32,000 nt of DNA from an uncultured Clostridium sp. (GTDB taxonomy: Bacteria; Bacillota; Clostridia; TANB77; CAG-508), in NCBI GenBank assembly GCA_947363765.1, contig CANAQC010000014.1, positions 1-32,000 of the forward strand, read 5' to 3'. A program made the translations under genes and the position numbers. The notes below the pieces were generated by a model that saw only the letters and a program-made list of their open reading frames with translations, did not search any database and had not been told where the DNA came from. Positions 20,564-28,035 of this stretch are shown piece after piece; position 1 is the stretch's first letter, and each line of letters opens with the position of its first letter.

Positions 20564-20601
20564 AAAAAATAGATAGAAAGTAAATAAGTACCTTCTATCT
20601 A
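20564..20601 (-). terminator. Rho-independent terminator closing the NRPS / two-component operon
   Basis: On the minus strand: stem tagatagaag(g) / (c)tttctatcta (9 bp plus a bulge) followed by TTTTTT (20569-20564). Lies 20 nt after the response-regulator stop. Confidence 0.6.
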
Positions 20602-20621
20602 AAATATATGTATAACAAATA

Positions 20622-21674
20622 TTATTTATACCTTTCTTGAATACTTTTAACTTCATCATAATGATTATGCAAAATATCTAAGAATACATCAGCAATTTTT
20701 GGATCAAATTGTGTTCCTTTACAACGTTCAATTTCAGAAATAACAACATCTAAAGGAAGTGCATCACGGTAAGTCCTTTTTGAAGTCATAGCATCAAAAG
20801 TATCTGCTACTGCGGTAATACGGGCAAAATAAGGAATGTTTTCACCATTCAATTTACTGGGATATCCAAAACCATCATATTTCTCATGATGATGTTTAAC
20901 AATTGGTATAATATCCTTAAAAATAGTAGCAGTAGATAAAATATGAGCACCAATTGATGGGTGATTTTTAATTTCAGAATATTCATCATCCGTAAGCTTT
21001 CCATCCTTTAATAAAATACTATCTGGTACACCAATTTTACCTATATCGTGGAATAATCCACCAATTTGTAAAGTTTTTAAATCAGAATCAGATAAACCTA
21101 AATGCTTACCAATTAAAACACTAAACTCAGAAACACGGTCAGAATGCCCACGAGTATATGAATCCTTTGCCTCTACAGTATAACGTAAAGTTTGAATACT
21201 TTCCATATAAGCACGTTCTAATTGTTTATAAGTATCTTTTAATTTATCATTCATATCTTTAATCATGTTCATTTGAGAAATAGCCTTGATACCAGATTCA
21301 ATTAATAACAATAACTGATCAAACTTATCACTTTTTTCGCAATACCCTTGAATATCTAGCCTACGAATTGTTTCAAGAGGAGGTGCTAAATCTTTATGAC
21401 CAGTTAATAATAAAATATATAACTCTTTATTAAACTTTCTAATTTCCTCGACTACTTGGTCACCATGAATAGGCATCATAATAAAATCTAAAAGCATTAA
21501 ATCAAAATGTTCATTCTTAACTTTTTCAATAGCTTCTAATGGATTTGTAACACCAGTAAACTCATAACCAGAACGTTTTAAAAAAATAGAAAGAGAATCA
21601 ATAATACCTTCTTCATCATCAACAACAATAATTTTATAACCATTTGAAGAATGTTCTAAATTTCCTTTTCTCAT
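20622..21674 (-). CDS. Response regulator: REC domain fused to an HD-GYP c-di-GMP phosphodiesterase domain (RpfG-like). No DNA-binding domain.
   Basis: 350 aa. REC motifs (IIVVDDEE, ..DLMLLDF.., LLLTGH). HD-GYP motifs (..LFHDIGKIGVP.. and ..HHHEKYDGFGYP..) are intact. Confidence 0.9.
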   Translation of the reverse strand: MRKGNLEHSSNGYKIIVVDDEEGIIDSLSIFLKRSGYEFTGVTNPLEAIEKVKNEHFDLMLLDFIMMPIHGDQVVEEIRKFNKELYILLLTGHKDLAPPLETIRRLDIQGYCEKSDKFDQLLLLIESGIKAISQMNMIKDMNDKLKDTYKQLERAYMESIQTLRYTVEAKDSYTRGHSDRVSEFSVLIGKHLGLSDSDLKTLQIGGLFHDIGKIGVPDSILLKDGKLTDDEYSEIKNHPSIGAHILSTATIFKDIIPIVKHHHEKYDGFGYPSKLNGENIPYFARITAVADTFDAMTSKRTYRDALPLDVVISEIERCKGTQFDPKIADVFLDILHNHYDEVKSIQERYK

Positions 21675-26700: not shown

Positions 26701-26972
26701 TTAAAACCATACAAAATCTCATACTTTTCTTTAGAAGTAACAACCTCAATATCGTGAATATTAATATCTTCACAATGAAGAACTTGATGAATCATATGTA
26801 AAATACGTTCATGAATGGCATAAATCTCATCATCATCATATTTATTAATACGATAATCATAAGCAATATTAACACTACCAGTATCATTAAGATCATATAA
26901 ATGAATATCAATATCATCTCCGACAAGTACCATTAAAAGCCCATCTTGTATCATAAGATAAGCCATCTTCAA
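23748..26972 (-). CDS. NRPS, 3' portion: C-terminal end of the C domain, adenylation (A), thiolation (T/PCP) and terminal thioester reductase (R)
   Basis: A-domain motifs: YTSGSTGKPKGV (A3), FDLTV (A4), NEYGPTE (A5), YKTGD (A7), GRSDFQVKINGFRIE (A8), NGKIRKD (A10). PCP core FFDYYIDSL. R domain GATGFLG Rossmann motif and YVHSK (YxxxK). The first ~90 aa (..DDIDIHLYDL....IAYDY..) look like the end of a C domain. The track's TTG start is probably artefactual. Confidence 0.9.
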   Translation of the reverse strand: MKMAYLMIQDGLLMVLVGDDIDIHLYDLNDTGSVNIAYDYRINKYDDDEIYAIHERILHMIHQVLHCEDINIHDIEVVTSKEKYEILYGFNLSKSFEISKTVIDLFLEQVSINPNKLAISDNTVNLSYSQFNNHCNKLCEFLVNSGIKPNDKICLFLDNSIDLLSSIYAILKCGACYIPIDTSYPIDRVEYIVEDSNAKYILTNNDNIHSLNFLNDICLLVDYEKINMLPKSTINYNMTSLNNLAYIIYTSGSTGKPKGVKIAHESLSNYISWANKVYVKDSPCNFPLYSSISFDLTVTSVFTPLISGNCIYIYTDDNSQLLFKKIIDDRKVHIIKLTPAHLTLLLDYITPHTLVKKLIVGGDILSTEMCTKIMTLSNNKISIFNEYGPTEATVGCMIHVYNKEDNKYSSVPIGKPAENVQLYVLDDNLNLMPFEQPGQLYISGKCLSKGYVKLEEANSKKFISSPFDKHDKLYKTGDIVVLHKNLLMEYIGRSDFQVKINGFRIEIGEIQSKILKYPNIKDCYVTTIQKNNTKALCAYYVCNKEKTINLKQLKNYLIESLPSYMIPKYFILLDELPLTNNGKIRKDLLPEPNTNIHDIYVEPMGDLEKLFSKVFCQLLNIDKISVTSNFFDYYIDSLVIIKAQTLLYSNGINVDIQHFYEYPSIRTLCNYIQSGNVRKDNNDNESFPSILSIQNKKNTQVSSYKNILLFGATGFLGIHILYNLLQTTDAHIYCIIREKDNLNSIQRFYKYFSFYFSKDELVKYENRITTITGNILKRHFELKNDIYINLGKCIDCVIDSAAIVKHYGNYEDFFNINVCGTNKIIDFCTTFNIDLHYISTLSVSGYGLVNAPNCTFTENDFYIGQNYKDNVYVHSKFEAEKLILDACNTKNLNCSIYRVGNITNRFLDGVFQKNAKDNAFLNRIISFISLKEIPTEILNLCLEFTPVDYCANFIVRLLPYFPNNINIYHLYNQNTILLKDLISILEKHNIFIETNSLEHFEKRIISSPDKYFGISNYLSNFKDKNVNQIYLSNTLTNNVLSSLSLSWPILLDDYFEKFLNYLIENKIIGGLYEK

Positions 26973-28035
26973 TATTTGCTTTAGTAATTTGATAAGACAT
27001 AATAATATTGTATAAGCTAGGTAAATTAGGATTTTTCCTTCTTAAATCCTCTAAAATATATTGGTAAGAATATTTTTGATGTCGTAATAAACCCAAAGAA
27101 TTTTTAGAAATAGAATTTGCAAAATCTTTAAAAGTTTGATTTTTCAATAAATCTATCCTACAAGGTACAATATTTATAAACATACCCATTGTATTTTTTT
27201 CTTTAAAATTAGTACGATTTAAAATAGGAGTACCAATTACAAAATCATCTAAATTAGAGACCCTACCTATATAAATTGAAAAAATAGCCATAAAAAAGTT
27301 AAAAACAGAAATACCAACAGATTTACAAAAATCATTAATTTCATCCATTTTCTCCTTTGAAATAGTATAAAGAACACGATTTGCTTTGCATGAAAAATTA
27401 TCAACATCAGTTTTTCTACTTGGAATAGATGCAGACTCTGGAATACTTTCAAAAATAGAATTCCAATATTCTTTATCTTTCATAAATTTAGTACTTGATA
27501 TATATTCTTGTTCAGATTTAATATAATCAGTATAAGAAAAAATAGTACTAACATCAACATCTTCATTTTTAATTAAACAAGAATAAATATGAACAATGCC
27601 TCTTGCAACTAGCCCAAGAGTCCAAGAGTCAGAAACTAAATGGTGAATATTTACTGAAAATCCACCAGAACCATTTGGAAAACGAAATAATTTACAAGTA
27701 AACATATTAGAATAAATATCAAACACTTGCTTAATTAAATTATTTTCAATATTAGAAACATCATTTTCTATATTAACATCAATTACATCCACATCAAAAG
27801 GAATATAATCACTAACATATTGTTTAATTTCATTATTTTCAATACACAATTTAATACGAAGACTATCATTATATTTAACTAAAAGATTAACAGCCTTTTT
27901 CAATATATCAAAATTAATAGCCTCATAAATAAAAGCACTTCCACAAATATTATTAATATTAGAACCTTTAAAATATTGCTCTGTTGCCAAAATGGACTTT
28001 TGAGGAGCCGTTAAATCATATAAATCCTTTTTCAT
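26914..28035 (-). CDS. NRPS, 5' portion: N-terminal condensation (C) domain, truncated by a frameshift
   Basis: 373 aa. C1-like LTAPQKSILATEQ. Active site HHLVSDSW (HHxxxD). C5-like MGMFINIVPCR. C6/C7-like HQKYSYQYILEDL / RRKNPNLPSLYNII. It ends at a TGA at 26914, and the downstream frame continues the domain. GGGTGA RBS. Confidence 0.85.
   Translation of the reverse strand: MKKDLYDLTAPQKSILATEQYFKGSNINNICGSAFIYEAINFDILKKAVNLLVKYNDSLRIKLCIENNEIKQYVSDYIPFDVDVIDVNIENDVSNIENNLIKQVFDIYSNMFTCKLFRFPNGSGGFSVNIHHLVSDSWTLGLVARGIVHIYSCLIKNEDVDVSTIFSYTDYIKSEQEYISSTKFMKDKEYWNSIFESIPESASIPSRKTDVDNFSCKANRVLYTISKEKMDEINDFCKSVGISVFNFFMAIFSIYIGRVSNLDDFVIGTPILNRTNFKEKNTMGMFINIVPCRIDLLKNQTFKDFANSISKNSLGLLRHQKYSYQYILEDLRRKNPNLPSLYNIIMSYQITKANIEDGLSYDTRWAFNGTCRR

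Follow-up and report, generated by a model that had tools for sequence, protein, structure and literature searches.

Synthase, sensor kinase and HD-GYP regulator encoded side by side in an uncultured Clostridium: a reductase-terminated non-ribosomal peptide synthetase as the possible signal source of an Rpf-like circuit

The window analysed here comprises 32,000 nucleotides of an uncultured Clostridium sp. (contig CANAQC010000014.1 of the GenBank assembly GCA_947363765.1, positions 1 to 32,000; G+C content about 25%), and it contains adjoining genes for a non-ribosomal peptide synthetase (NRPS), a sensor histidine kinase and a response regulator that carries a receiver (REC) and an HD-GYP domain. 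The locus had been described before, from the letters of the DNA, as a possible self-contained circuit in one operon, and several statements of this original prediction about its layout are borne out. According to the ORF listing and Pfam there are four open reading frames (ORFs), all on the minus strand: a condensation ORF, which is the 5' part of the NRPS (26914-28035, 373 amino acids (aa); Pfam Condensation), the 3' ORF of the NRPS (23748-26972; Pfam AMP-binding, AMP-binding_C, PP-binding and NAD_binding_4), the kinase ORF (21773-23767, with its ATG at 23758; Pfam HAMP, HisKA and HATPase_c) and the regulator gene (20622-21674; Pfam Response_reg, HD_5 and HD). As had been claimed, the kinase gene begins within the end of the NRPS gene: its ATG, preceded by GGTGG, has an overlap of 11 nucleotides (nt) with the stop codon (23748-23750); a ribosome-binding site (RBS), GGGTG, lies 7 nt upstream of the NRPS ATG. 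The terminator placed after the regulator gene was also found: an intrinsic-terminator-like hairpin of 13 pairs followed by TTTTTT (20570-20601, minus strand) closes the unit, and it is one of two terminator-like sites in all in the scanned interval 19400-28600, none of them between the genes. Finally, neither the scanned ORFs of the window nor the gene calls of the identical contig L001 include a thioesterase, a phosphopantetheinyl transferase, an MbtH protein or an exporter.

The divergent intergenic region at 28036-28297, presumably the promoter region, separates the NRPS from a gene on the plus strand for an HtrA-like serine protease with a PDZ domain (28298-29440; Pfam Trypsin_2 and PDZ). 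A promoter consensus scan gave 72 sites against 77.5 expected, and a search of the window with Rfam returned tRNAs only, with no c-di-GMP (cyclic di-GMP) riboswitch. A DUF975 gene, also on the minus strand, lies downstream of the regulator gene, beyond the terminator.

Pfam assigns to the NRPS a single module with the domain order condensation, adenylation, carrier (thiolation) and reductase (C-A-T-R). The C domain (Condensation, E=5.7e-67, profile positions 2-359 of 456) is detected in the 5' ORF and shows the catalytic motif HHLVSD at residues 131-136, the pattern HHxxxD being present in 96 of 96 homologues. The motifs SGSTGKPKG, YGPTE and NGK (with the A10 lysine) are found in the A domain (AMP-binding, E=1.9e-67), and GATGFLG and YVHSK (YxxxK) in the reductase (NAD_binding_4, E=5.4e-43). 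The carrier domain (PP-binding, E=9.2e-8) has a DSL serine that is invariant across the 96 homologues, but its motif, FFDYYIDSL, is atypical in comparison with GGxS; the statement that the A, carrier and R motifs are all canonical needs correcting for the carrier domain. The reductase reaches 164 bits against TIGR01746, under the cut-off of 213, and the best NCBIfam similarities are to AusA module 2 with R (NF047350; 571 bits, cut-off 2500), with 413 bits to MxcG (cut-off 2300). Among its sequence matches in the PDB are GrsA (1AMU) and the R domain of AusA (4F6L).

The specificity code of the A domain, read by anchoring on the A4, A5 and A10 motifs, is DLTKIGEVGK in 95 of the 96 homologues and differs by a single substitution in the remaining one. 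We take it to be the canonical asparagine code (Stachelhaus code) bar a conservative Leu-to-Ile change at the fifth position, and it indicates an Asn-specific domain. The C domain is N-terminal and its closest counterpart is the first C domain of bimodular relatives. This starter position, together with the acyl-CoA-ligase-like gene that neighbours the NRPS in many lineages, points to N-acylation of the amino acid. A single Asn-specific module could form neither a dipeptide nor a pyrazinone. The product is probably an N-acyl-Asn aldehyde or alcohol, a prediction that rests on the specificity code and the domain order. Related to this, in colibactin- and xenocoumacin-type pathways ClbN-like C-A(Asn)-T proteins combine a starter C domain with an Asn A domain to give an N-acyl-Asn thioester, the prodrug motif; there the intermediate is passed to further modules, whereas direct release by the reductase is predicted here. 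The fatty-acyl-CoA-ligase-like gene (AMP-binding plus AMP-binding_C_3) is located between the HtrA and NRPS genes, on either strand, in about half of the lineages (L090 227-1972, L096 7919-9655, L098 3960-5639, L130 3839-5542 and L152 693-2462); the window does not have it.

The two NRPS ORFs are in fact one gene, split by the insertion of one base (C on the minus strand) at 26922, between ...WAFNGTC and GDDIDIH..., so that the window does not encode an uninterrupted NRPS polypeptide. The 5' ORF contains C residues 1-371 followed by two out-of-frame codons and a stop, and the part downstream of the insertion (23748-26921) encodes the last 60 or so C residues, the A and carrier domains and the thioester reductase. 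Removal of the base in silico gives a single ORF of 1428 aa. The relative L089, with an NRPS 87% identical, is without the extra base and has an intact protein of 1428 aa, and there are many intact C-A-T-R homologues, with a length of about 1425 aa. All seven metagenome contigs of the window species that span the site show the same insertion, and an intact allele of this species was not found among the NRPS matches listed.

Several causes of the split were considered. A sequencing error was rejected, because the same base is present in independent assemblies and there is no homopolymer; the lack of a homopolymer and the invariance of the base in seven contigs also mean that a phase-variable tract is not obvious. 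Programmed frameshifting was discarded since TGT-C-GGA-GAT contains no recognisable slippery site and L089 does not have the base. Long-term pseudogene decay was rejected as well: the repaired NRPS has no private substitutions at the 169 columns that are invariant across the 96 homologues, and the dN/dS values against L089 (A 0.12, R 0.17, C 0.34) are low, with 0.18 for the kinase. The lesion looks young, given this lack of additional damage and these low ratios. The NRPS is most likely inactive as an acylating enzyme in the window species, which would then most likely be a listener or a cheater, a species that does not make the signal and keeps the receptor and the regulator. Consequently, the idea of a self-contained circuit finds no support in the window itself, where the synthase is frameshifted within its C domain. 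One same-species scaffold (L002) is without about 38 bp in the A-T-R part (window 24631-24670), which results in more broken ORFs and could be further decay or a scaffolding artefact.

The kinase has six transmembrane (TM) helices that obey the positive-inside rule, according to its hydropathy. Its sensor half (aa 1-400; 22559-23758, minus strand) consists of TM1-5, an acidic extracytoplasmic segment of about 120 aa (aa ~212-332), TM6 and a HAMP domain, and it is followed by the transmitter half (21773-22558, minus strand), made up of the dimerisation and histidine phosphotransfer (DHp) domain with H435 and the N, G1 and G2 boxes of the catalytic (CA) domain. HAMP, HisKA and HATPase_c are the only Pfam domains, so the protein has no hybrid parts. 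The extracytoplasmic domain (ECD) was modelled by AlphaFold2 with pLDDT values of 87-95 as an alpha/beta fold (helix-helix-beta-beta-alpha-beta-beta-beta). Foldseek gave no significant PDB match for the model of the sensor alone (best E of at least 0.6, including the periplasmic domains of CpxA and CzcS, and PAS), and the full kinase model matched only cytoplasmic kinase domains. The original prediction was right about the six helices but not about a sensor mainly embedded in the membrane, and sensing within the membrane is not implied, because the extracytoplasmic domain is sizeable. The sensor family comprises 372 proteins in a set of 5.8 billion sequences, and a profile search gave 271 clusters at 50% identity. 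On the other side of the protein, the DHp-CA core is 66-80% identical to the listed matches, which include kinases with a completely different sensor (HisKA_7TM plus PAS) as well as many short fragments with the core alone; the 'kinases' of about 275 aa retrieved in this search include split-off core fragments, as shown for P0326 in L152.

As for the regulator, the receiver residues D19/D20, D63, T91 and K113 are present (Response_reg, E=2.2e-17), and so are the HD-GYP motifs HD(IGK) at 209-210 and HHEKYDGFGYP at 262-272 (HD_5, E=6.4e-38). Pfam detects no DNA-binding domain, in agreement with the claim of an intact HD-GYP output and no other. Among the NCBIfam families it comes closest to NosR, a response-regulator c-di-GMP phosphodiesterase, with 203 bits where the cut-off is 400. 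The protein is a predicted c-di-GMP phosphodiesterase in which the RpfG-like motifs are complete, and the five same-species single-nucleotide polymorphisms in its gene are all synonymous.

The gap between the kinase and regulator genes contains a perfect 21-bp hairpin (21678-21724, minus strand; RNA fold, -37.7 kcal/mol, z = -8.0). Its 3' arm holds the Shine-Dalgarno sequence of the regulator gene, GAGGTG, and its 5' arm and loop hold a promoter-like TAATATAAT box, which is conserved 5' of the regulator gene in relatives. On a read-through transcript the RBS of the regulator gene would be buried, because the hairpin arm contains it, and it would be free if transcription started at the box. The kinase gene of relatives is usually followed by a terminator-like hairpin and its T run, which the window does not have, and in two lineages genes on the opposite strand are inserted between kinase and regulator (L132 12023-13804, minus strand, alanyl-tRNA-synthetase-like; L100 12052-12858, minus strand, a 268-aa ORF of no assigned family). 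It seems from these signals and inserts that NRPS and kinase form a coupled unit and that the regulator is probably expressed separately from a promoter of its own. The claim of one operon thus stands for the NRPS-kinase overlap and is doubtful for the regulator. In the independent lineages L139/L140 (5697-11996) and L152 (2541-8834), frameshifts have split the NRPS as well as the kinase and the regulator is intact, which suggests that the regulator has additional inputs; the pattern fits an NRPS and kinase that work as a functional pair, plus a regulator that also receives other signals.

The three genes are found together well beyond the window species. Contig look-ups with NRPSs at 87, 62, 57 and 49% identity revealed the kinase directly downstream in every case, with the REC-HD-GYP gene next wherever the contigs reach far enough. 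An independent entry through the sensor half alone, by means of a metagenome scan, led to 52 loci, and the order NRPS-kinase-regulator is kept in about 45 of them. A contig profile search with the NRPS alignment mostly returned unrelated NRPSs on account of generic motifs, L023 being the useful locus. In all, about 50 independent contigs keep the three genes side by side while NRPS identity drops to 45-58% and the flanks differ, so the neighbourhood, on whose conservation the original prediction had staked its reading, is strongly conserved. NRPS stop and kinase start overlap or lie no more than 12 nt apart in most lineages. Among loci, identity is 45-58% for the NRPS, 43-65% for the sensor, 67-81% for the regulator and 82-87% for ABC-F, the first two evolving much faster than the others. 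The human gut is the source of many of the metagenome contigs, and one member in NCBI bears the label Clostridium sp.; the module is spread through a clade of small-genome, low-GC Clostridium species, most of which come from such gut metagenomes.

The usual gene order is HtrA, the acyl-CoA-ligase-like gene (where present), C-A-T-R NRPS, kinase, REC-HD-GYP regulator, then either DUF975 or MGDG synthase with an acyltransferase, Tex and ABC-F. Wherever a type-1 locus has upstream sequence, the HtrA-like gene is there as the divergent neighbour; its membership in the system is uncertain. Downstream, the neighbours vary (DUF975, MGDG synthase plus acyltransferase, mobile elements); on the strength of this variability the DUF975, MGDG-synthase and acyltransferase genes were not counted as members of the system, and DUF975, moreover, is positioned behind the terminator. 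In L135 (2933-9953) a mobile element with a relaxase, a resolvase and a large serine recombinase stands immediately 5' of an intact kinase gene, in the usual place of the NRPS.

The main new result is the way in which synthase and sensor vary together. At the loci examined, the 6TM-ECD-HAMP sensor with an adjoining NRPS is found only with Asn-type C-A-T-R proteins. Another sensor, HisKA_7TM-PAS, stands only beside non-Asn reductase-terminated NRPSs, whose codes are for Thr, Gly or unassigned and never for Asn; these 7TM-PAS kinases have a core 62-80% identical and are followed by a regulator 80-92% identical. L150, L155 and L023 carry a bimodular C-A-T-C-A-T-R NRPS followed directly by a 7TM-PAS kinase, and in L150 and L155 the next gene is a REC-HD-GYP regulator 81-82% identical to that of the type-1 locus L092, L150 being in a different neighbourhood, beside S30AE and RecO genes. 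L154 has a multi-module reductase-terminated NRPS and a 7TM-PAS sensor at the type-1 chromosomal site. From kinase residue ~407, at the HAMP/DHp junction, it is 99.4% identical to L092 over 8785 bp, through the regulator, MGDG synthase, acyltransferase, Tex and ABC-F genes, and upstream of this point the two are unrelated. L156, a relative of the window species, has a regulator 92% identical to that of the window, DUF975 downstream and a homologous C domain at 68%, with A-T-R at 36% and a 7TM-PAS sensor; the breakpoints fall between C and A in the NRPS and at residue ~412 of the kinase. Between L092 and L107 the flanks are 95-97% identical at the nucleotide level and the HtrA-NRPS-sensor region 73-87%.

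A partial Mantel test of NRPS against sensor divergence, given flank divergence, resulted in r=0.69 (p=0.0008), with r=0.27 for the regulator, a result that is not independent of physical linkage. If the product of the NRPS is the ligand of the kinase, it is to be expected that NRPS type and sensor type change together. The pattern resembles the one that marks agr and comQXP as pheromone loci. Since physical linkage contributes to the correlation as well as to the joint swaps, it is supportive, not proof.

Some further observations concern these loci. The HtrA-like proteases of L092 and L107 are 81% identical at the amino acid level versus 99% for Tex and ABC-F, a divergence that could reflect a link to a peptide-aldehyde-type product or hitch-hiking. 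In four lineages the 7TM-PAS kinase is called as two ORFs of 131-150 and 424-463 aa (L150 7581-9392, L154 4779-6583, L155 5946-7748 and L156 3902-5676), and in L023 (12978-14792) as one ORF of 604 aa; the frame relations of the split ORFs differ by lineage, and a true two-gene arrangement is possible. In the comparison of the window with L089, the kinase core has dS 0.64 and dN 0.13 and the sensor dS 0.33 and dN 0.05, and the window core is as similar to the 7TM-type core of L156 (80%) as to that of its own orthologue, which suggests past recombination inside the kinase core.

On the whole, the arrangement first described is genuine and well beyond chance. The locus may be read as a quorum-sensing circuit similar to Rpf, with an aldehyde or alcohol of N-acyl-Asn as its probable signal, and we give this reading, drawn from sequence comparison, a probability of roughly 0.55. 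The NRPS would N-acylate Asn and release it reductively as the aldehyde or alcohol; the product would leave the cell and bind to the kinase expressed alongside the NRPS, at its sensor half; the kinase would phosphorylate the regulator, and the HD-GYP domain would then hydrolyse c-di-GMP. The output would be a post-transcriptional switch of lifestyle, for example between attachment and dispersal. Synthase and sensor half of the receptor would be exchanged jointly between strains, and the kinase core and regulator would be kept.

The original prediction was not aware of any description of such wiring. Its logic, however, equals that of the Rpf/DSF system of Xanthomonas, where the signal produced by RpfF is detected by RpfC and c-di-GMP is broken down by the REC-HD-GYP protein RpfG (PMC3749722, PMC5391125), so the overall wiring is already known. 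Both systems encode a synthase, a polytopic sensor kinase and a REC-HD-GYP protein together, with no DNA-binding output. RpfB is an acyl-CoA ligase implicated in DSF synthesis in Xanthomonas, and some of the relatives examined here have the acyl-CoA-ligase-like gene. The differences are also clear: the synthase is an NRPS here and an enoyl-CoA-hydratase-family (crotonase-fold) protein in the case of RpfF; the kinase is non-hybrid, without the REC or HPt domains of RpfC, and has another sensor architecture; and the setting is a Gram-positive gut anaerobe with translationally coupled synthase and kinase and with cassette polymorphism. In the literature searched, no description was found of a Clostridia NRPS joined with a kinase and an HD-GYP regulator, nor of an NRPS in the role of synthase, of such a circuit in a Gram-positive gut bacterium or of a pherotype-like exchange of synthase and sensor.

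Several facts weigh against this interpretation. The synthase is broken in the window. Physical linkage by itself would also lead to joint swaps and correlated divergence, and the kinase core, as the first stretch that is conserved, is where homologous recombination would naturally be resolved. The swap within one species is based on one pair of metagenome contigs (L092/L154), to which three further contigs add 7TM-type cassettes at the same chromosomal site or beside the same neighbours. Much of the synteny is by vertical descent, as the type-1 loci share one chromosomal site. With respect to the regulator, there are the terminator-like hairpin and promoter-like box in the gap of relatives and the gene inserts of two lineages, and its integrity where NRPS and kinase are broken hints at other inputs. 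Sensor kinases of the same family also occur with no NRPS upstream (L104 4186-6156, 56%; L157 146-2152, 42%), and these, along with the 271 clusters, show that the sensor fold is wider than the NRPS-linked clade; the L104 kinase is preceded by MMPL and DUF308 genes, and the L157 contig is of only 2.6 kb.

The alternative that survives best, which we nonetheless consider unlikely, is that the NRPS metabolite is directed at the host or at competitors, for instance as a protease-inhibiting acyl-amino aldehyde, and that the kinase and regulator sense an unrelated cue from the envelope or the environment; common ancestry and co-expression would then be all that makes the genes neighbours, and linkage the cause of their joint swaps. 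Reductase-terminated NRPSs of gut Clostridia were reportedly found by Guo et al. in 2017 to give protease-inhibiting aldehydes. Linkage by itself predicts the gradient of correlation NRPS-sensor > NRPS-core > NRPS-regulator; the single chromosomal site of all type-1 loci, the HtrA-like protease as conserved divergent neighbour and the kinases without an NRPS are likewise in favour of it. What it leaves unexplained is why two unrelated sensor types, each with its own class of NRPS, are joined to a common core and regulator, why the module turns up again in other genomic surroundings (L150), and why the NRPS stop and the kinase start are translationally coupled in nearly all lineages.

It is improbable, more so than the former, that the kinase detects the product of the NRPS or a precursor as feedback or self-protection, with c-di-GMP tuning the envelope or biofilm of the producer against a reactive aldehyde; autoinduced and immunity circuits of antimicrobials would be the parallel, and communication across a population would not be the purpose. 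The co-variation of synthase and sensor applies equally to this possibility, aldehydes are reactive, and MGDG synthase and acyltransferase genes follow the regulator in several lineages; but these lipid genes are not conserved neighbours, and a purely self-directed function is hard to reconcile with a window species that keeps kinase and regulator intact and constrained despite its broken synthase. Least probable of all is that the locus is simply decaying here, with the NRPS as a pseudogene and no current function of the module, or that the frameshift is bypassed and the NRPS still made: the lesion shared by all same-species contigs examined and the independent NRPS and kinase lesions of other lineages agree with decay, but the constrained kinase and regulator and the otherwise undamaged NRPS do not, and the site of the insertion offers nothing to slip on.

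The Rpf-like reading can also be set beside other signalling and biosynthetic systems. The comQXP genes of Bacillus subtilis are polymorphic (PMC4408185). In agrBDCA of staphylococci and in comQXPA, as here, the signal genes and the sensor half of the kinase diverge or are exchanged together in close relatives and the transmitter and regulator are conserved. The boundary of variability in agrC and comP is at the sensor domain, the transmitter half being conserved. Those systems use ribosomal peptides and DNA-binding regulators, whereas an acyl-amino aldehyde or alcohol and a c-di-GMP output are presumed in this case. CqsA/CqsS of Vibrio (CAI-1) and LqsA/LqsS of Legionella are examples of a synthase for a small lipophilic autoinducer encoded beside a six-helix membrane sensor kinase by which the product is detected; they differ in having a PLP-dependent synthase, hybrid kinases and a phosphorelay to transcription with no HD-GYP protein. 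On the enzymatic side, a terminal thioester reductase is shared with AusA, with MxcG (C-A-T-R, myxochelin) and with the gut-Clostridia family. AusA (aureusimine) has the order A-T-C-A-T-R, and the window gene is a single module with an N-terminal C domain; likewise, the peptide-aldehyde family of gut Clostridia is two-modular and the window gene is not, the relatives L023, L150 and L155 being the bimodular ones. To our knowledge, a dedicated two-component system attached to this NRPS family has not been discussed.

A broader and more tentative proposal, to which we give somewhat less than even odds, is that human-gut Clostridia use their reductase-terminated NRPSs, a class best known for protease-inhibiting peptide aldehydes, to make the autoinducers of a polymorphic, pherotype-like quorum-sensing system with matched sensors on a common kinase core and a fall in c-di-GMP as its direct response, in which an N-acyl-asparaginal could cyclise to a lactam or hemiaminal similar to acyl-homoserine lactones and the window strain would be a signal-null listener. 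If true, a class of gut-Clostridia NRPSs mainly considered to be host-directed would acquire a role in cell-to-cell signalling. Gram-positive quorum sensing is dominated by peptides that act on transcription, and a non-ribosomal autoinducer with c-di-GMP output would be added to it. The natural matched cassettes of synthase and sensor (Asn-type versus 7TM-PAS) would make ligand-receptor specificity directly testable, and strain-level 'dialects' together with non-producing listeners in the gut would bear on colonisation and biofilm behaviour.

Apart from this locus, another part of the window (3559-8900, minus strand; 9451-9723 and 13960-14032, plus strand) contains genes for DnaI-/DnaB-like loaders, a T4SS pilin-like protein and a coupling-protein-like protein, which suggest that a conjugative element has left a remnant there, and beside it four tRNA genes, three of them in a cluster.

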